The position numbers were made by a program, and so were the translations under genes. Shown here in pieces: positions 5,865 to 53,768 of a DNA stretch of 64,000 nucleotides. The stretch's first letter is position 1; every line of letters begins with the position of its first letter. Origin of the DNA: Escherichia phage vB_EcoM-G157lw; the sequence record OK331996.1. One strand, given 5' to 3'. The notes under the pieces are model-generated. The model ran no database searches, was not told the DNA's origin, and saw only the letters and a list, made by a program, of their open reading frames with translations.

Positions 5865-6560
<696 letters not shown>

Positions 6561-6561
<1 letters not shown>

Positions 6562-6605
6562 TTTCACAAAGTTGTTTACACGATGATGGAGAAGTGATAT
6601 TATCT
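6561..6605 (+). promoter_or_regulatory. T4-type early promoter (GTTTAC -35 plus AT-rich -10) upstream of ipI
   Basis: tttcacaaagttGTTTACa ... gatattat. Confidence 0.6.
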
Positions 6606-6638
6606 CCATCAACACATTTATTAATTTAGGAAAATAAA

Positions 6639-6923
6639 ATGAAAACTTATCAAGAATTCACTTCAACGACTAACGCTTCTACTTTGACTGAAGCGACCCT
6701 TACTTCTGAAGTTATTAAAGCAAACAAAGGACGTGAAGGTAAACCGATGATTAGCCTGGTTGATGGCGAAGAAGTCAAAGGTACTGTTTACCTGGGTGAT
6801 GGATGGTCCGCTAAGAAAGATGGTGCTACAATCGTTATCTCCCCTGCTGAAGAAACTGCTTTGTTTAAAGCCAAGCATATTTCAGTAGCTCAGCTTAAAA
6901 TTATTGCTAAAAATCTTTTGTAA
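6639..6923 (+). CDS. ipI: internal protein I-locus product with N-terminal capsid targeting sequence, 94 aa
   Basis: N-terminus MKTYQEFTSTTNASTLTE matches the T4 internal-protein CTS consensus MKTYQEF. Confidence 0.75.
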   Translation: MKTYQEFTSTTNASTLTEATLTSEVIKANKGREGKPMISLVDGEEVKGTVYLGDGWSAKKDGATIVISPAEETALFKAKHISVAQLKIIAKNLL

Positions 6924-6924
6924 T

Positions 6925-6975
6925 AAATTTTTCGCAAAGTTGTTTACACAGGGTTTTAGTAGTGATACTATTACC
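6925..6975 (+). promoter_or_regulatory. T4-type early promoter
   Basis: tttttcgcaaagttGTTTACa ... gtgatactat. Confidence 0.55.
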
Positions 6976-6999
6976 CTATCAACTACTGAGGAGAATAAA

Positions 7000-7185
7000 A
7001 TGAAACGTTGTGAATTAATTCGAAATGTTGCTATCGCAATTTCTGCTTCCGCTTTTAGTTTTTCAATGTTTGTTGGATTTATATGCGGATTATTAACTAC
7101 AGCAGAAAATGTATTTTCACTTGTAGTAGCATTTTTAATTGGTTTAATTGCTATCGTTATGGATAAAATTTCTAAAGGTGAGTAA
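7000..7185 (+). CDS. small hydrophobic protein, 61 aa, two predicted TM segments
   Basis: ATG after GAGGAG RBS; track ORF extended upstream through the promoter. Confidence 0.5.
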   Translation: MKRCELIRNVAIAISASAFSFSMFVGFICGLLTTAENVFSLVVAFLIGLIAIVMDKISKGE

Positions 7186-8992: not shown

Positions 8993-9343
8993 ATGAAAGG
9001 TAATGTTTATTTAGTAGTTCATGATTTAACATTTTACTTCAATGAATATGAAAAACATATCTCATTTCGTGAAATTAATTTACTTTATCAACACGCGGAT
9101 TATATTTATATTCAAAACGAATTTGGTCATTGGCAATTTCTCAAAAATCGTTCATTTGGCTTAGATGGTTACGAATACTTTGAACGTAAAGACCTTTTAG
9201 ATAAAATTCCGTTATCTACACAATATCAAAATCACAAGTCTTTATATAAATGCCGTCCAATTCGAAATGCTGAATCTGCGTATGAAGCAATTGATTTATG
9301 GCGTAAACGTCGTGAACAGATTGATGCTTTAAAAGAATATTAA
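8993..9343 (+). CDS. hypothetical protein, 116 aa
   Basis: ATG after GTGAGGAAA RBS immediately downstream of tRNA-Arg. Confidence 0.6.
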   Translation: MKGNVYLVVHDLTFYFNEYEKHISFREINLLYQHADYIYIQNEFGHWQFLKNRSFGLDGYEYFERKDLLDKIPLSTQYQNHKSLYKCRPIRNAESAYEAIDLWRKRREQIDALKEY

Positions 9344-9349
9344 GAAACC

Positions 9350-9650
9350 GGGTCGCTACCGGTAAGTCGTCGGACTGATGTTCCCTGAGTAAGGAATTGT
9401 GTTAATAAATCTTTATGATTTGTTGATGCCCTCTTACATCACAGCTGAAACGGCGCACCGAATTATCGATTCGAGGAAATATCTTTGCCGTAAGCCGAGT
9501 AGCGTTTTTGACGGAACGTTCGGATATGGTCGAGATATGGCCTTTTAAAAATATTGAGTAGCGTCAACTGCTTGATAACCGGGTTCGAATCCCGGCGTTT
9601 CGTACAAACACTTGCCTTAGCAGGTGGAACCCCGACAAGGTTGCCGCAAG
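9350..9650 (+). ncRNA. candidate stable small RNA(s) with a tRNA-like T-arm (position of T4 species 1/2 RNAs)
   Basis: Non-coding 300 nt with several hairpins including ccgggttcgaatcccgg; ends in a terminator. Confidence 0.35.
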
Positions 9651-9651
9651 G

Positions 9652-9682
9652 CTTAGCCCCAGCCGAAAGGTTGGGGCTTTTT
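9652..9682 (+). terminator. terminator hairpin; upstream copy of a 31-bp direct repeat
   Basis: cttagccccagccgaaaggttggggcttttt. Confidence 0.6.
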
Positions 9683-9684
9683 AG

Positions 9685-9692
9685 TATAAATA
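9685..9692 (+). promoter_or_regulatory. T4-type late promoter TATAAATA
   Basis: Exact TATAAATA about 35 nt upstream of ATG 9729. Confidence 0.5.
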
Positions 9693-9728
9693 AGTATATT
9701 AAATCTACAAATTAAAACAGGAAATAAG

Positions 9729-10202
9729 ATGAAATCATATACTCAATTTTTAAATGAAGCGGTGTTAAATGAAGCATCTAGCACCGAAATTCAAGCTGTC
9801 GCAAAAGCAGCCATTGCAGCGGGTAAATATTCTTACAAAGATGCTTCTGATGAATCACGATTCCAGTTCGCACGCGACATGAAAGCGGAAGGATTTACGG
9901 GAAATGCAGTTAGTATGGCCTGGAAAAGTTTAGTTGCTACTGGCGCTGCTTTTGCAAAGGCTTCGGGTAAACCTGCTCCTAAAGCAGATCCTAAAGTCGC
10001 ACAAGAGAAAAATATTGTTAAAGGAATTATCTCCAAATATGAAGCTATCCTTAAAGAGCTTTTAGTAATCAAAACTGAAGGCCAAAAACTAGCTCGTGCT
10101 TATAGTTTCAAAGATAACCCACATGCTCACTCTCTTGAGTATGTTGAAGACATCCAAAAAATTATTAAAGACCGCATTTGGTCTGCTAAACAAATCAAAT
10201 AA
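9729..10202 (+). CDS. internal-protein-like protein with CTS-like N-terminus, 157 aa
   Basis: N-terminus MKSYTQFLNEAVLNE resembles CTS; flanked by direct-repeat terminators. Confidence 0.7.
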   Translation: MKSYTQFLNEAVLNEASSTEIQAVAKAAIAAGKYSYKDASDESRFQFARDMKAEGFTGNAVSMAWKSLVATGAAFAKASGKPAPKADPKVAQEKNIVKGIISKYEAILKELLVIKTEGQKLARAYSFKDNPHAHSLEYVEDIQKIIKDRIWSAKQIK

Positions 10203-10206
10203 CATT

Positions 10207-10237
10207 CTTAGCCCTAGCCGAAAGGTTGGGGCTTTTT
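10207..10237 (+). terminator. terminator hairpin; downstream copy of the 31-bp direct repeat
   Basis: cttagccctagccgaaaggttggggcttttt, one mismatch to the copy at 9652. Confidence 0.6.
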
Positions 10238-10330
10238 GGTATCTAGGCCTTTCCAGGCCTCTCTAGACATCATTTAGTTTCTACCCTTTATAATATATTA
10301 TCCTATCCTTTGATTTCCCCTCCCTGCCCT

Positions 10331-10443
10331 AGAATTCCCCAAAACTTTTTAAAAATTTTTTCACAAAACTGTTTACATCCTTGTCCTTCCATGGTACTAT
10401 ACAACTATCAACTACTGATACAGAAAACAACTTGGAGAATGAA
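10331..10443 (+). repeat. promoter-leader module copy A (early promoter plus conserved leader GGTACTATACAACTATCAACTACTGATACAG)
   Basis: Near-identical copies at 25195, 27351 and 53045; the GTTTAC -35 hexamer within this copy is at 10371-10376. Confidence 0.75.
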
Positions 10444-10707
10444 ATGGATAATTACGGTGAACTGTTCAACTTCTTTATGAAATGTGTTTCAGAAGATTTC
10501 GGTCGTACGGTGAATGATATTAAAGTTATCGGTCCTGATCATCCGATGTTTGAAACCTATGCAGTAATGGGTAATGAAGATGGTCAGTGGTATACTGTAA
10601 AGGTTGTGATTAACATGTTCACTGCTGAAGGTTATGTTAAACTGTCTTCTAAAGTTTACCATGATAACGACGAAATCGCAGAAGAATATTTCAATAATAT
10701 GAAATAA
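10444..10707 (+). CDS. hypothetical acidic protein, 87 aa
   Basis: ATG 8 nt after GGAG; track ORF N-terminus is an artefact of translating the leader. Confidence 0.6.
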   Translation: MDNYGELFNFFMKCVSEDFGRTVNDIKVIGPDHPMFETYAVMGNEDGQWYTVKVVINMFTAEGYVKLSSKVYHDNDEIAEEYFNNMK

Positions 10708-10763
10708 GTTTACATAGGCTCATGATTGAGATATTATGAGCCTATAATTTGAGGAAAACTGTT

Positions 10764-11282
10764 ATGTCTCTTTATACCGAACTGAATGAAACTTCCGAAA
10801 AATCTTTTGATGGTATCTTATCAATAATGCAAAAGCAGGTATTAGAAGAGCTTAGTGAAGCCGCAAGCAATGGGTACAAAGCTTGTCGAGTTCAAAGCCC
10901 ACATCGCCGCATGTATGAACGCCCTCTTATTAATTGGCTAGAAAGCGAAGGTCTTACGGTTAAGATTTGCCCTGCTAAATTTGATGTTCCACGTATTCTT
11001 AATATTTACTGGGATAAACCGGTTGAGAAAAGTGACACTTGGGTTGTTAATGTAAAAACATGCGATAATGGATGCTCACTTGAGGTGTCTGCTGTAATTA
11101 AAGGCACCCATGGTGAAAAATCGTGGGGTTGGCCTGGTAAAGATAAAGAAATCGTGTTAAGTGTAAAAGCTACTAGTATTAGTACTCCTATAGCTAAAAG
11201 CATTATCACTGCCGCTGTTGAAGAAGCTGAACGAATTTGTAAAATTAAAAATAGTTTACATCTCTTAAGTAGCATGATATAA
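10764..11282 (+). CDS. hypothetical protein, 172 aa
   Basis: ATG after GAGGAAA; preceded by perfect inverted repeat aggctcat...atgagcct. Confidence 0.6.
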   Translation: MSLYTELNETSEKSFDGILSIMQKQVLEELSEAASNGYKACRVQSPHRRMYERPLINWLESEGLTVKICPAKFDVPRILNIYWDKPVEKSDTWVVNVKTCDNGCSLEVSAVIKGTHGEKSWGWPGKDKEIVLSVKATSISTPIAKSIITAAVEEAERICKIKNSLHLLSSMI

Positions 11283-11325
11283 TTCTTCTGCAGATTTTAA
11301 TTTCTAATCAACCTAAGGAAATACT

Positions 11326-11919
11326 ATGAACACACTGAAGAAAATTGTTGAGTTTATTCGCACTAAACTTGGTTCTGCTATGGCTAAAAATCTATCTGTT
11401 GAAGAGCAGTATACTGCCGCAGCAGCAAAATTGCTTGATAAAATTAAAGATCTAAAAACTGCTTCTGTTAAATCTATTAATGAAGAAAAGCGTATTCGTG
11501 AACTTATTGTCGAAAAGAATAAGCAGGCCGAATCAAAAGAGCGTGAAATTCGCAAGCTCCTTTCTGAAGGTCAAGATGTAACAATGCATGCTAAACTCGG
11601 TTTACTATATCGTCGAACAGCTGAGCAGTTGACTACTAAAGCTGATGGTTATGCTGAAATGCGAATTGAAATCGCCAAGAAAGTAGTTGAGTTAGATGAT
11701 GCTCGCCAAGAACTTGCAGTTAAATTGGAATATATCCGTGAAACTCGCGCCGCGAATGCCCTTGGAATTAGTACTGCTGATGATGTAGTTGAAATTGCAG
11801 CACTGACTAAGGTTGATATTGAAGATACTCTTGCTCGAGTTGAAACCTTTAATGGTAATATTTCTGGGGTTGAAACTACCTCTGCCGATGTTCAGGAATA
11901 TATTAATTCTCTGAAATAA
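11326..11919 (+). CDS. hypothetical coiled-coil protein, 197 aa
   Basis: Track ORF; heptad-rich, charged. Confidence 0.6.
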
Positions 11920-11924
11920 TGATA

Positions 11925-11940
11925 AGGGGCTTCGGCCCCT
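11925..11940 (+). terminator. UUCG-tetraloop hairpin
   Basis: aggggcttcggcccct. Confidence 0.5.
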
Positions 11941-11960
11941 ATTACTTGGAGTAAGTAGGA

Positions 11961-12569
11961 ATGAAAATGCAAAGTGATTTCAATTCAATGTTTGAAGAGT
12001 TCCAAAGACAGGTTGATGTTCCAGACCAATTATTAAATGCTCTTAAACGTATGGCAGAAGGACGTAATTATTATTGGGGTTCTTCATATGAAACTGTTGA
12101 AAATCTTTCTGGAAGATTTTCTAGAGGTAAAAAGTCTTTAATACGTCCTGGAATACTTATTAACAGTATTGAATCAATTCATTTATTAACATGCGATTTT
12201 GACGTTGAATTTACTGATTTTGTTTCTCCTGAATGGACGGTCTGTTATTTAAACGACGATTATGATTATCTTGGCGTTTATAGTTTAAGTGATGCATGGT
12301 TTAAACGTAATTTACAAAAGTCAAATTTATTCTATATTGATACTACTGTAAAATTTCAGGGCAAGAAATATTTCTTTACTCTTATAGTTGACTCTGAAAC
12401 AAAATATGAAAATAAACGTATTCTTAGTAAAAAGAATATCTTAACTATTGTCGATGATCTTTTTGATAAATTCGTAGAAAATCCCAATTTTGAAAGCGAT
12501 TTATTATTAGAAAAATTTGTTAAGGAATGTAGAGAATATGTCAAAACCATCACTATACCTTCCAAGTAA
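11961..12569 (+). CDS. hypothetical protein, 202 aa, C-terminal FVKECR motif; first member of paralog array
   Basis: Track ORF; 3-prime end carries the conserved junction. Confidence 0.6.
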   Translation: MKMQSDFNSMFEEFQRQVDVPDQLLNALKRMAEGRNYYWGSSYETVENLSGRFSRGKKSLIRPGILINSIESIHLLTCDFDVEFTDFVSPEWTVCYLNDDYDYLGVYSLSDAWFKRNLQKSNLFYIDTTVKFQGKKYFFTLIVDSETKYENKRILSKKNILTIVDDLFDKFVENPNFESDLLLEKFVKECREYVKTITIPSK

Positions 12570-17495: not shown

Positions 17496-17957
17496 ATGAC
17501 TATCAATACAGAAGTTTTTATCCGTCGAAATAAGCTTCGTCGTCACTTTGAGTCGGAGTTTCGTCAAATTAACAATGAGATTCGTGAGGCATCAAAAGCA
17601 GCAGGGGTCTCATCGTTTCATCTAAAATATTCTCAGCATCTTCTTGATCGTGCAATTCAACGGGAGATTGATGAGACATATGTTTTTGAATTATTCCATA
17701 AAATAAAAGATCATGTTTTAGAAGTTAATGAATTCCTGAGTATGCCTCCGCGTCCTGACATTGACGAGGATTTTATTGATGGGGTTGAATATCGTCCTGG
17801 ACGTTTAGAAATCACAGATGGAAATCTTTGGCTTGGATTTACAGTTTGTAAGCCTAATGAGAAGTTCAAAAACCCGTCACTTCAATGCAGGATGGCAATT
17901 ATCAACAGTCGTCGTTTACCAGGAAAGGCTTCTAAAGCAGTAATTAAAACTCAATGA
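17496..17957 (+). CDS. regB: RegB site-specific endoribonuclease, 153 aa
   Basis: MTINTEVFIRRNKLRRHFESEFRQINNEIREASK recalled as T4 RegB; same size. Confidence 0.85.
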   Translation: MTINTEVFIRRNKLRRHFESEFRQINNEIREASKAAGVSSFHLKYSQHLLDRAIQREIDETYVFELFHKIKDHVLEVNEFLSMPPRPDIDEDFIDGVEYRPGRLEITDGNLWLGFTVCKPNEKFKNPSLQCRMAIINSRRLPGKASKAVIKTQ

Positions 17958-25170: not shown

Positions 25171-25172
25171 TA

Positions 25173-25196
25173 GGGAGCCTTCGGGCTCCCTTTTTT
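25173..25196 (+). terminator. intrinsic terminator
   Basis: gggagccttcgggctccc followed by tttttt. Confidence 0.7.
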
Positions 25197-25284
25197 ATTT
25201 CAAAAATTTTTCACAAAACGGTTTACAAGCATAAAGCTTTATGGTACTATACAACTATCAACTGATACGGATTTGGAGAATAAA
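25195..25284 (+). repeat. promoter-leader module copy B
   Basis: tttcacaaaacgGTTTACaagc ... atggtactatacaactatcaactgatac. Confidence 0.75.
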
Positions 25285-26253
25285 ATGAAAACTGTAACTA
25301 TCAATAAGGGTATCTACTTCGGTAAAGAAATCTCTGGAACTTTTGAGCTCTTAGGCGAATGGTTCCCGGATAATGCTCCGGTAGATGCACAAGGAGATGG
25401 TAAAGTTTTTGTTGAAATTGACGGTAAACGTCGCGGTGTTTGGGTTTACAAATCAGACATTTCATATGATGGTGTAAAAGTTGAAGAAGTTAAAGAATCG
25501 TATGAAGATATGAAAACCCGCATTAATAAAAGATTTAATGTTATGGGAATGATGACGAATGGTATTATTAACGGAAACATTCGTTCATTAATTATTTCTG
25601 GTGCGGCGGGTATTGGTAAAACGTATTCTTTAGATAAAGCTTTAAATAAAGCAAATGATATTGGATACATTGAATATAAAAGCATTAATGGTAAAATCTC
25701 TGGTATTGGTCTTTATGAACAGCTTTGGAATAATCGTGAAGAGAATTCTGTCCTTTTGATTGATGATGTGGATGTTTTCTCTGATATGGACATTCTTAAT
25801 CTTCTGAAAGCTGCTCTGGACACTGGAGAGACCCGTAAAGTCTGCTGGAGCACTGCATCTTCTTACTTAGAAGAAAAAGGAATTGAGCGTGAGTTTGAAT
25901 TTAAAGGAACGATTGTTTTTATCACAAACGTTGACATTGACCGCGAATTAGACCGTGGTACTAAACTTGCTCCACATTTACAAGCATTAGTGTCCCGCTC
26001 AGTTTATTTGGATTTGGGTGTTCACACTAATGAAGAAATTATGGTCAGGGTTGAAGATGTTATTCTTTCAACTGACATGATGCAAAAGCGCGGTCTTTCT
26101 GATGAAGAAACTTATAAAGCATTATCATGGATGAAAGTCAATGTTAATCGTTTACGCAATGTTTCACTGCGTACTGCTCTTTATCTTGCTGACTTTATTA
26201 TGACCGACAAAAACGGTTGGGAAGAAATCGCTGAAACGGTATTATTAAAATGA
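25285..26253 (+). CDS. AAA-type ATPase, 322 aa
   Basis: Walker A GAAGIGKT, Walker B LLIDDVD; ATG after the GGAG of the conserved leader. Confidence 0.7.
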   Translation: MKTVTINKGIYFGKEISGTFELLGEWFPDNAPVDAQGDGKVFVEIDGKRRGVWVYKSDISYDGVKVEEVKESYEDMKTRINKRFNVMGMMTNGIINGNIRSLIISGAAGIGKTYSLDKALNKANDIGYIEYKSINGKISGIGLYEQLWNNREENSVLLIDDVDVFSDMDILNLLKAALDTGETRKVCWSTASSYLEEKGIEREFEFKGTIVFITNVDIDRELDRGTKLAPHLQALVSRSVYLDLGVHTNEEIMVRVEDVILSTDMMQKRGLSDEETYKALSWMKVNVNRLRNVSLRTALYLADFIMTDKNGWEEIAETVLLK

Positions 26254-26968
26254 AAAAATATTTTACTATCTATAAAACTGAAATATTAAATTTAAAGACA
26301 GGTATTAAGAAATACTATTATGGTCGACATATAACTAATAACATCAATGATTCGTATGTTGGTAGTGGAAATTATATAGAACGTGTAAAAGTGTCAAATG
26401 ACCACATATTATCAAAAACGGTTTTAGAAGTTTTTGATAATTATGATAAAATGGTACAAGCTGAAATATTATATATCATGGCAGGTAAATTGAAATATGG
26501 AAAAACTGTGTTAACCTGTCATACGGGGGTGAAGGAGGAAAGGTTGCAGATGAAACTAGGATAAAATGCAAAAAGCATTCTATAAATTTATGGAAAAATC
26601 CTAATCATATACAGCATATGAAGAAAAAGATGAAAGAGGTCACATCCACGCCGGAAGCTAAATTAAACACTTCAATAAAAACTTCGCAACGATATAAGGA
26701 CCCAGTTTTTGTTAGAAAAGTTAGTAATATTATTAAAAAGAAACTAAACAATCCTGCAGTAAAAGAAAAGCATATTAATGGAATTAAAGCTGCAAAGCGT
26801 TCTCATTTAACTATATGGCAGTATGAAGATGAATTATTCGAGCTTTGGAAAGAAACTAAATATGGATGGAGAAAATTTACAAAGGAAGCTATAAAACACG
26901 GATATCCAAATGAACCGTATCGTAGTATGGTATCAACTTTTCAGAAAAGACATTTAGAAGAATCCTAA
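26250..26968 (+). pseudogene. GIY-YIG homing endonuclease-like gene split by a frameshift near 26500-26560
   Basis: N-terminal ORF has GIY-YIG-like FTIYKTEILNLKTGIKKYYYG ... YVGSG; reading continues in another frame into ORF 26618-26968. Confidence 0.45.
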
Positions 26969-27038: not shown

Positions 27039-27353
27039 ATGGAGGTAATGATGTTATACTCAAAGGCTCGTGAAATTTACGAAACTAAAATTAAAGAAGC
27101 AGTATTTCAGTTCGCAACAACAATGCGATGGACAAATGATTGGGAGTATTCAAAAAATCATAAGAAGCCTTTGGTGACAAGAAAGGCTCATATGTTAGTG
27201 TTAATAGACCGTGAGCAGATTAAAGCCCGAGAAGCCCTCCAGAATCATAAAAAGGCTGCCTTTGAATGGTTTATGGATAACACTGCTCCTGAGACTAAGA
27301 AAGCAGTGAGCGCTTGGTTCAGTGGAAAAAATTGTGAAAGAAGTTTCTTTTAG
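27039..27353 (+). CDS. hypothetical protein, 104 aa
   Basis: Track ORF. Confidence 0.55.
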   Translation: MEVMMLYSKAREIYETKIKEAVFQFATTMRWTNDWEYSKNHKKPLVTRKAHMLVLIDREQIKAREALQNHKKAAFEWFMDNTAPETKKAVSAWFSGKNCERSFF

Positions 27354-27413
27354 TTGTTTACAAGACCGTTCCTCTGTGGTACTATACAACTATCAACTAC
27401 GGAGGAACAGAAA
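27351..27413 (+). repeat. promoter-leader module copy C
   Basis: GTTTACaagaccgttcctctgtggtactatacaactatcaactac; two mismatches to copy D. Confidence 0.75.
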
Positions 27414-27941
27414 ATGAACGCTAAAGATATTTTCAACCTGGTAAATTATAACGATGGTAAATTTAAATCTGAAGCTCAAAGCAAGTTCTTTAATGATGTC
27501 TCAATCGGTGGTGAAATCACTGTTGATGGAGGACAAATTTACAAATCCCGTTGGAATTGGATCGTTATTATCGATGAGATTGGTATTGTAGAAATTTACA
27601 AGAATACGAATAAAAATCGTACATTACACTGGTCTCGTGATACTAACGAACAGTACAAAAAGGATAAAGCATCTAAATTATCTCGTGTAACTCAAGAAGA
27701 TATTGAGTTCATCAAGAAAGATATTTTGATGTATGATAACTTAATTGCTGAAGAGCAAGCTGTTATTGATAAATTTGACGAGATTAAAGCTTCTCGTGAA
27801 ATTCCTGATTTTATGAAAGAATCAGTAAATGAACGATACACTCTCATTTCAGAGCGTATTGAAACTTACAAAAAGCAAAGAGCTGAACGCCAGAATACTC
27901 TTCGGAAGTTTGAAGAACGGTTAAAGACGGTACTCGCATAA
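27414..27941 (+). CDS. hypothetical protein, C-terminal coiled coil, 175 aa
   Basis: ATG after GGAGGAA of the leader. Confidence 0.6.
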   Translation: MNAKDIFNLVNYNDGKFKSEAQSKFFNDVSIGGEITVDGGQIYKSRWNWIVIIDEIGIVEIYKNTNKNRTLHWSRDTNEQYKKDKASKLSRVTQEDIEFIKKDILMYDNLIAEEQAVIDKFDEIKASREIPDFMKESVNERYTLISERIETYKKQRAERQNTLRKFEERLKTVLA

Positions 27942-38355: not shown

Positions 38356-38409
38356 TACATTCTGTATATTACCATTCTAAGCTATCGTTCCCTTCTTATC
38401 ATTCCCTAA

Positions 38410-38462
38410 AATAATTTTCACAAAGTTGTTTACAACAAGTTCAAACCGTGGTATTATTAACA
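38410..38462 (+). promoter_or_regulatory. T4-type early promoter; upstream half resembles the promoter-leader modules
   Basis: ttccctaaaataattttcacaaagttGTTTACa ... gtattatt. Confidence 0.55.
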
Positions 38463-38656
38463 TATGAATTACCTTTGAGGAATTGATATGATTGATAAAG
38501 AGATTAAAATTGACCAGTACTATCGTGTTAACGGACATATCGTTATTGTTACAGCAGTCGATGATTTAGATGTTCATTATACTTTGCTTAAATGGAACAA
38601 ACGTTTGATTTGTGATCGTGCTGTATTTAGTTCAGTTGCTAAGGAAATTAAACTCC

Positions 38657-52957: not shown

Positions 52958-52970
52958 TAGAATAAATCTA

Positions 52971-52991
52971 GGGACCTCCGGGTCCCTTTTT
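52971..52991 (+). terminator. intrinsic terminator
   Basis: gggacctccgggtccc followed by ttttt. Confidence 0.7.
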
Positions 52992-53044: not shown

Positions 53045-53140
53045 AGAATTCCCTAAAAAATTTTCACAAAACTGTTTACAAGACTGTTCCTCTGCGGTAC
53101 TATACAACTATCAACTACTGATACAGATTTGGAGAATAAA
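53045..53140 (+). repeat. promoter-leader module copy D
   Basis: gaattccctaaaaaattttcacaaaactGTTTACaagactgttcctctgcggtactatacaactatcaactactgatacag. Confidence 0.75.
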
Positions 53141-53377
53141 ATGAAAATTGTTATGGGATGCTTAGCAGTTTGTTTAGTTGCATTAGCAGCAGTTCCATTT
53201 GTTAGTGTTGAAAATGATACTCAACCTATGATTGAATCTAGCACCGTTATTCACACTAATGGTAAAATATCAGTTAAAATTGATGATAATCTTCATGTGA
53301 ATACAAATGGATCTTTAGGTGTACAAATAGGTAATACCTGCATAAGCACTACTGGAGTAATTACTACTTGCATTTGA
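53141..53377 (+). CDS. small secreted protein with signal peptide, 78 aa
   Basis: ATG after the leader GGAG; N-terminal hydrophobic signal. Confidence 0.55.
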   Translation: MKIVMGCLAVCLVALAAVPFVSVENDTQPMIESSTVIHTNGKISVKIDDNLHVNTNGSLGVQIGNTCISTTGVITTCI

Positions 53378-53387
53378 GGAAATTATT

Positions 53388-53768
53388 ATGAAAATCGCTA
53401 TTTTGGTTATTGCATTAGGTCTTACTGGTTGTGTAGCTCAAGGACCGGTAGTAAATCAGTCTGATGTAGGAAAAATTGTAAATTGTTCAAGTAAATTTTA
53501 TAATCCTAATGTCAAGTGTTATAAAGAAGCTCCAAAGCAAACAGTAGAACAAATGCAGGCGAATTTTGACGAAGCTATTCGTCCAGATGAATCTGCTCAA
53601 GCATATCGTAATTCGGATGTAATTACACGCGAAGAAAAAATTGAAAACTACTGCGCCGAGCTTTGGGCTAATTGGGCTAATAATTACCAATGGCGTACCG
53701 GTAAAAATGCTCCGATGGAGTATGTAGTGAATTCTTATAATTCATGCGTAAAAAATTTAACTAAGTGA
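53388..53768 (+). CDS. predicted lipoprotein, 126 aa
   Basis: Signal peptide MKIAILVIALGLTGC with lipobox L-T-G-C. Confidence 0.6.
   Translation: MKIAILVIALGLTGCVAQGPVVNQSDVGKIVNCSSKFYNPNVKCYKEAPKQTVEQMQANFDEAIRPDESAQAYRNSDVITREEKIENYCAELWANWANNYQWRTGKNAPMEYVVNSYNSCVKNLTK

Follow-up and report, generated by a model that had tools for sequence, protein, structure and literature searches.

What are the four near-identical promoter-leader segments dispersed through a 64,000-nucleotide stretch of the genome of Escherichia phage vB_EcoM-G157lw (OK331996.1; this whole stretch is hereafter the window), and why are they so alike? The original prediction described them as copies of one module, with a common early promoter and an almost invariant leader, and likened them to promoter-early-stem-loop (PeSL) recombination cassettes; a post-transcriptional operator in the leader was offered as a second possibility. 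Searching the whole window, we found the 21-nt block GGTACTATACAACTATCAACT exactly at 10393, 25243, 27378 and 53096, always on the + strand, and obtained no match in 100 shuffles of the window. The four copies thus lie where they had been predicted. An unbiased repeat search ranked this four-copy family (D1) first among the direct and dispersed repeat families of the window. Alignment confirmed that the copies at 27378 and 53096 (modules C and D) differ at only 2 of 45 positions from GTTTAC through CTAC, with 16 of 18 spacer positions identical. Modules A (at 10393) and D are 96% identical across the 25 nt downstream of the -10.

Similarity of this kind might reflect the consensus common to early promoters, plus chance. 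Other early promoters of the window and of T4 do carry a weak version of an a..c.tAtcaa.ta motif, together with GTTTAC, a TGn/-10 and GGAG, and the remaining window promoters display a weak a.tc.Tat....Ta skeleton at the same place after the -10. When 18 early-type promoters of the window were aligned on their -35 and -10 elements, the 25 nt after the -10 showed 71% mutual identity among the four copies, compared with 36-41% for all other pairs, and the identity of the four is therefore well beyond the generic early-promoter consensus, as the original prediction had maintained. In addition, four exact 21-mers stand against an expectation of zero, the non-consensus spacers are held in common (C and D, 16/18), and upstream and TIR blocks are common to varying pairs. 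The 21-mer count, the alignment and the identity after the -10 refute an origin in generic consensus plus chance, to which we assign a probability close to nil.

Each module joins an early promoter to a leader and a TIR, on the + strand. Module A (10337-10446) serves e.8 (10444-10707, +) and consists of a UP-like A/T tract (10337-10370), the -35 GTTTAC (10371-10376), TGn and the -10 TACTAT (10395-10400), a predicted +1 at about 10407, the Shine–Dalgarno (SD) sequence GGAG (10434-10437) and the ATG at 10444. In module B (25195-25287, +), which serves nrdC.10 (25285-26253, +), the -35 lies at 25221-25226, the -10 at 25245-25250 and the predicted +1 at about 25257; the SD (25275-25278) is inside GGAGAATAAAA, and the ATG is at 25285. 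Module C (27337-27416, +) serves nrdC.8 (27414-27941, +), with its -35 at 27356-27361, -10 at 27380-27385, predicted +1 at about 27392, SD GGAGG at 27401-27405 and ATG at 27414. The nrdC.9 ORF has its 3′ end within the sequence 5′ of this -35, where no terminator is present. Module D (53045-53143, +) has its -35 at 53074-53079, -10 at 53098-53103 (lacking the TG), predicted +1 at about 53110 and SD at 53131-53134, again inside GGAGAATAAAA; it was found as predicted, and its start codon is at 53141, a small correction. The gene that begins there is a 78-aa ORF (53141-53377, +; PHROG 4189) with no assigned function, located between the module and imm.1 (53388-53765). As had been proposed, the modules precede non-core genes: e.8, nrdC.10, nrdC.8 and the 78-aa ORF followed by imm.1 are non-essential.

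All four modules contain GTTTAC-N18-TACTAT. The predicted common promoter is thus present throughout, except that the TG of an extended -10 precedes the hexamer in A, B and C and not in D. The UP-like A/T-rich element reads AAAAATTTTTCACAAAAC in A, B and D; module C has the weaker AAAGAAGTTTCTTTTAG, inside the end of the nrdC.9 ORF. Counted from the predicted +1, an A seven bases past the -10, the leaders of A, B, C and D measure 37, 28, 22 and 31 nt. The ATG of every module follows GGAG or GGAGG at a distance of 4-6 nt, which agrees with the predicted leader ends as far as GGAG is concerned; three of the SDs are GGAG followed by an A-rich tail, and that of C is GGAGG. Modules B and D have a 35-nt TIR block in common (94% identity).

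The nrdC.10 protein gave only weak Pfam matches, below the curated cut-offs, to AAA/STAND NTPase families (AAA_14, E 6e-5; nSTAND3, E 5e-4). Conservation of the gene extends to T4-like phages whose copies are as little as 60% identical (37 loci), always after an early promoter.

Parts of the module recur elsewhere in the window. The upstream 20-mer TTTTCACAAAACTGTTTACA is exact in modules A and D, in line with the upstream segment that these two had been said to have in common; it has one mismatch in B and two at 38415. The latter site belongs to the partial fifth copy of the original prediction (38409-38490, +), in which only the upstream half (UP-like tract and -35) is common and the -10, TATTAT, and the leader differ. 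Further relatives of TTTTCACAAAACTGTTTACA with three mismatches, at 6561 and 6929 (search expectation 0.02), had been missed. The second of these regions holds a degenerate family member (6923-7003, +), a trna.4-type promoter of the form GATACTAT-TACCCTATCAACTACTGA followed by GGAGAATAAAATG.

The window is from a Tequatrovirus: over bases 9000-12000, identity is 98.9% with Escherichia phage JY01 and 97.6% with RB51. It runs opposite to the conventional T4 map and corresponds approximately to T4 78-14 kb. Orthologous T4 modules were located at 70672 (e.8), 55360 (nrdC.10), 53919 (nrdC.8) and 27056 (imm.1), and the complete T4 genome has further exact cores at 163649 (motA) and 167062 (ndd region). 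Two family members are annotated as promoters in the 1994 T4 record of the ndd region (X75802). T4 also contains a half-copy at 146851 (frd.3), where the whole upstream half is as in module B, and degenerate relatives at 73548, 65390, 20085 and 6606. Yersinia phage PST, the relative of T4 for which PeSLs have been catalogued, has the module as well. Scans of public viral and metagenome contigs returned the same loci, plus a C-type copy before an unrelated small gene; five chance hits of these pattern-based scans (L025, L037, L048, L026 and L035) were discarded. A comparison of insertion points with other T-even genomes had been suggested, and it gave a divided answer: one homology breakpoint coincides with a module, D, but all four copies occupy orthologous sites in T4.

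The T4 member near 6606 (6540-6665), which is outside the span covered by the window, has its -10 within a perfect 12-bp inverted repeat, TCAGTAGTTGAT ... ATCAACTACTGA, so that the leader box is present on both strands. Its -35, TATATACA, is poor.

T4 early promoters form the Pe class, described as "uber" promoters with UP, -35, TGn and -10 elements (Hinton 2010, PMC2988021). The window copies have the same GTTTAC, the same 18-nt gap, TAnnnT with a preceding (T)GG, a UP-like tract and early-strand orientation; they lie at sites orthologous to T4 promoters, and nothing essential differs. Within that class they make up a tight subfamily (seven T4 loci), distinguished by identity that extends about 15 nt past the -10 and reaches the spacer, upstream tract and TIR in pairwise combinations.

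What holds those 15 nt constant? The distance of the invariant block to the -10 is fixed, whereas its gap to the SD is 18, 11, 0 and 12 nt in A, B, C and D. This register argues for a start-site or initial-transcribed element of the promoter and against an operator tied to the ribosome-binding site, and the block ACAACTATCAACTAC accordingly behaves, as far as can be read from sequence, like the promoter's discriminator, start site and initial transcribed sequence. A strict-pattern search of T4 recovered 32 early promoters, all on the early strand, and the 26 of them outside the family have the consensus a..c.tAtcaa.ta after the -10; given this T4-wide skeleton, the invariant block is, in its perfect form, the start-site element general to T4-type early promoters. 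YATCAA, the generic form of the box, is kept 5-10 nt past the -10 before nrdC.10 orthologs with as little as 60% protein identity. Promoter and leader sequences of these orthologs vary by lineage, and an A/C-rich, G-poor leader is retained.

The block could instead be an operator at which a specific trans-acting factor, distinct from RNA polymerase, acts on RNA (as a leader-binding protein or small RNA) or on DNA (for instance to shut off early promoters). Its invariance in the paralogs would suit such a role, as would its near-invariance in Tequatrovirus orthologs retrieved independently of the block (4-7 sequences per locus, a small but unbiased set, loci fetched by the core pattern being biased toward an intact core). 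The start-site motif is, moreover, kept across T4-like lineages, with lineage variants common to several loci, and reviews call the mechanism of early-promoter shut-off not understood. The leader, however, is without secondary structure: in the folding check that had been proposed, five leaders folded no better than shuffles (z -0.1 to +1.7), and a stem-loop or riboswitch-like operator was rejected on this ground. We found no complement of at least 11 nt to the block within the window, and a leader duplex with the rnaC/rnaD-homologous region scored no better than that of a shuffled leader, and so pairing with a small or antisense RNA was likewise rejected. The core sequence itself was looked for verbatim in the literature, and no paper contained it. 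Nothing specific is required 5′ of GGAG by the endoribonuclease RegB and S1, and the block is in register with the -10 rather than with the SD or ATG, grading continuously into the generic early-promoter consensus, as expected for an element contacted by the polymerase or initially transcribed. We therefore regard an operator of this kind as quite improbable. A narrower variant, judged slightly less probable again, would make the box ACAACTATCAACTAC the cis-target of the early-promoter shut-off mechanism or of another lineage-specific early factor, its one positive argument being conservation. In that case, the concerted evolution of the box across loci, including the RB69-like lineage variant AGACCTATCAA common to several of them, would reflect coevolution with the factor.

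The SD end of the leader is a different matter. Strong T4 RegB/S1 sites follow the consensus GG*AGRAYARAA, and GGAGAAUAAAA is the efficient T4 site; 24 of 68 intergenic GGAG/U sites of T4 are efficiently cut by RegB, and the SD of T4 nrdC.8 is reported to be moderately cleaved (PMC1702504; PMC3014915). The enzyme requires single-stranded RNA and has no sequence requirement 5′ of GGAG (Durand et al. 2006, PMC1702504; Uzan and Miller 2010, PMC3014915). The window encodes regB (17496-17957, +), an endoribonuclease that, according to the literature, cuts GGAG in early TIRs; the product is 99.3% identical to T4 RegB. Three exact matches to the RegB consensus occur in the window, where 0.43 are expected, and two of these are modules B and D, both of which end in GGAGAATAAAA, exactly the efficient T4 site. 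Scored against the tail RAYARAA, B and D match at 7/7 positions, A at 6/7 and C at 4/7. All six RegB-type TIRs of the window sit behind predicted early promoters. The likeness to known RegB/S1 sites, at the level of sequence, therefore extends to A, B and D, with a single-stranded leader and regB itself in the window; module C (GGAGGAACAGA) is a poor fit, and the site reported as only moderately cleaved is that of its T4 ortholog. These sites account for the 3′ end of the module but not for the invariant block beside the -10. Thus, the predicted operator is right for the SD region, a part already explained by RegB/S1, and not for the invariant block, which is anchored to the -10, unstructured and without a pairing partner.

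Near-identity of paralogous promoters may also be maintained by exchange between them. Aligned as mosaics, the copies resemble one another in different combinations: A and the T4 6606 copy have a long 3′ leader in common, C and the D copy of the window are alike in the spacer, and A and D are alike in the upstream tract. The spacer at locus D exists in a hybrid form (T4, L005 and L028), an A-like form (L014, L021, L036 and L054) and a C-like form (this window and L032), such that three of the four possible combinations of the two halves were seen. At locus A, one sequence (L033) has a D-type spacer. At locus C, another (L070) carries a 6-nt replacement, with six changes within 10 nt, that converts the site to the TACCCTATCAAC type of other promoters; the changes hit the -10 and discriminator, and the surroundings are nearly unaltered. 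In RB69-like phages, e.8, nrdC.8 and nrdC.10 have TAT-AGACCTATCAA instead of TAT-ACAACTATCAAC, and because this core is common to them, paralogs within the lineage match better (19/19) than orthologs between lineages (16/19). In RB69 early promoters, C is preferred genome-wide at -3 to -1 (Nolan 2006), which means that conversion and lineage-wide selection are not fully separable for the core. The spacer mosaics are the cleaner and stronger evidence for ectopic exchange. Taken together, the mosaic spacers, the clustered replacement and the lineage-specific common cores indicate exchange between copies, without deletion of the DNA between them.

In T4, the frd.3 promoter matches module B exactly from the T-tract of the terminator through the spacer, the -10 and ACAACTATC, after which the two diverge fully. 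This half-module looks like a recombination product between promoter cassettes.

Are the modules, then, primarily devices for moving genes? In the PeSL concept, a repeated composite consists of an AT-rich tract, TTTACW-N17-TAYWAT and, at its 3′ end, an SD and ATG (PMC2839356; PMC4122927). For RB49 and phi1, inverse PCR supplied evidence for the model, with crossovers mapped to the interval from the -10 to the ATG (Arbiol et al. 2010, PMC2839356); the concept, from the Krisch laboratory, was later applied to T4 and PST as well (Comeau, Arbiol and Krisch 2014, PMC4122927). The window copies are likewise repeats detectable by dot plot, with accessory ORFs downstream and with ORF insertions and deletions at their 3′ ends in relatives. 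On the strict form of this explanation, the modules would be mobile recombination cassettes in the first place, with promoter function secondary, and their identity would be kept as the substrate of frequent, possibly factor-assisted recombination via mini-circles. The published model, with its inverse PCR data, mapped crossovers and extension to PST and T4, speaks for it.

Several gene arrangements fit as well. At module D, homology to T4 breaks exactly at the start codon, and the 78-aa ORF is inserted ATG-to-ATG, with GGAGAATAAAATGAAAAT and GGAAATTATTATGAAAAT at its two junctions. The ORF is present in 28 of 45 sampled relatives (evenly spaced among 520 related records) and absent by direct fusion in 13; T4, RB32 and PST are among those that lack it. 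In one relative (L041), module B and nrdC.10 are separated by an additional 458 bp that contain a 49-aa ORF and another promoter and are bordered by a 21-bp TIR repeat, which places a gene between two promoter modules. In L046, the ndd-region locus has gained a 68-aa ORF by ATG-to-ATG insertion, and duplicated TIRs flank such ORF indels in relatives at B, D and the ndd-region locus. Upstream of nrdC.10 genes that are 99% identical, phages have any of three modules, each joined at GGAGAATAAAATGAAAACT, and a C-type module stands before an unrelated gene at another locus in L022 and L046. Insertions, deletions or replacements flank A, and relatives have other genes or modules at B and at the ndd-region locus; no variation was seen beside C.

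The 78-aa ORF has a hydrophobic N-terminus (MKIVMGCLAVCLVALAAVPF...), and a variant beginning MKIVYG... occurs in other contigs.

Position and frequency point the other way. Each of the four copies has its T4 counterpart at the same position, and homology between the window and T4 runs uninterrupted through B and C. Breaks near A are in flanking sequence, and only D coincides with a homology breakpoint; the proposition that T4/window breakpoints are generally at modules was rejected. Modules B and C form direct repeats 2.1 kb apart that flank non-essential genes, yet a synthetic query for the B x C deletion junction (at least 80% coverage) matched in 0 of 658 matching phage records, and a module-mediated B-C deletion was likewise rejected as a candidate. 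Finally, the observed junction homologies are 8-21 bp of TIR sequence, which is within the range used by general T4 recombination (Srikant 2022 and references therein). Nothing observed requires a dedicated recombinase.

The stem-loop of the PeSL name is a further point of difference. Terminator-like hairpins on the + strand precede three of the copies: one resembling an intrinsic terminator at 25172-25191 ends 29 nt upstream of the -35 of module B, another at 52970-52987 ends 86 nt upstream of that of D, and a third at 10210-10233 ends 137 nt upstream of that of A. Three copies had been predicted to follow a strong terminator, and hairpins do precede A, B and D, but at greatly differing distances. 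Only module B has the adjacent stem-loop of a PeSL, and module C has none. The motA copy in relatives has the same hairpin arrangement as module B. As a class of sequence, in the exchange between copies and in the ORF indels at the SD-ATG end, the modules agree with the predicted PeSL-type shuffling elements; in their stable T4 positions, the missing B x C junction and the stem-loop confined to B, they do not. We consider it unlikely, on this balance, that they are primarily mobile cassettes. The ORF indels located exactly at the SD-ATG end nevertheless fit the published shuffling model.

The neighborhood of the modules contains other repeats and replaced genes. The hairpin before module A is one of a duplicated pair (9652-9687 and 10207-10242; 36 nt, 94% identical). 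This terminator pair (repeat family D9) flanks an ORF at 9729-10202 (157 aa, PHROG 2280), which the RB51 annotation describes as "flanked by 34 bp imperfect direct repeat"; the ORF is absent from T4, where rnaC adjoins the e.8 promoter directly. Its first codons belong to a repeat family, ATGAAAACATATCAAGAATTTAT, found at 9729, 14829 and 60283. This family presumably resembles the capsid-targeting N-terminus of T-even internal proteins; if so, the ORF is an internal-protein-like cassette inserted between copies of a stem-loop. Repeats based on early promoters, with stem-loops, border swappable small genes at the polymorphic internal-protein loci of T-even phages (Repoila et al. 1994, as described in PMC2839356). 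In the window, ipI lies between two related promoters (6555-6603 and 6923-6971), and the internal-protein-like ORF at 9729-10202, with its duplicated terminator, is just upstream of module A; here, in contrast to those loci, the duplicated element is a terminator hairpin and not a promoter module.

A second class of dispersed repeats comprises GC-rich hairpins, (A/G)GGGCTTCGGCCC(C/T), in five copies (11922, 39282, 42925, 48236 and 50183); the GGGCTTCGGCCC family presumably represents intrinsic terminators with a UUCG-type loop. Downstream of e.8, at 10749-11282, T4 e.7 is replaced by an unrelated, RB32ORF130c-like ORF, which is similar to RB69ORF146c according to the RB51 annotation; the breaks, at about 10759 and 11309, are in flanking promoter/RBS regions. 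Between nrdC.10 and nrdC.9 (26250-26968) are two consecutive ORFs of 104 and 116 aa that match consecutive parts of the phrog_314 homing-endonuclease profile (E 6e-11 and 1e-7). Together they resemble a homing endonuclease gene that has been split or is decaying, and the segment of about 730 bp that contains them is absent at the same position from T4 and L041. A GIY-YIG domain, called by eye in these ORFs, was rejected after no Pfam hit was obtained, the PHROGs assignment being "homing endonuclease" in general.

We conclude, with a probability of roughly 80%, that the four copies are paralogous T4 early promoters, each a complete immediate-early cassette for an accessory gene. Going by the consensus and T4 orthology, host sigma-70 RNA polymerase would bind the UP-like tract, GTTTAC, (TG)n and TACTAT, and transcription would start at the A about 7 nt downstream of the -10, within CT-A-TCAAC. 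The resulting transcript would have a G-poor, unstructured leader of 22-37 nt, whose SD in A, B and D (A at 6/7) would present the RegB/S1 target GGAGAAUAAAA; phage RegB could then cut the SD and stop translation after the early period. We infer promoter activity, the +1 position and RegB cleavage in this phage from the consensus and the T4 literature. Common descent, selection on the promoter and TIR, and ectopic homologous exchange (gene conversion) probably together explain the near-identity of the copies, and the SD-ATG end probably also offers a short stretch of homology for the gain or loss of whole ORFs in PeSL-type modular shuffling.

The repeats are real and explained, and their class is already known: they are T4 early-promoter/PeSL-type elements at T4's own sites. 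Given this positional stability and a class described between 1989 and 2014, current understanding is unchanged. The additions made here are modest, namely the census of a seven-locus T4 subfamily, the argument from -10 anchoring, the evidence for conversion and the frequency of the ORF at locus D. For annotation, the repeats are regulatory cassettes, not mobile elements or assembly artefacts, and the four accessory genes are assigned, by prediction, to an immediate-early, RegB-limited expression class. The mosaic spacers and ATG-to-ATG indels lend small comparative support to the swapping of accessory genes at standardised promoter/TIR junctions.
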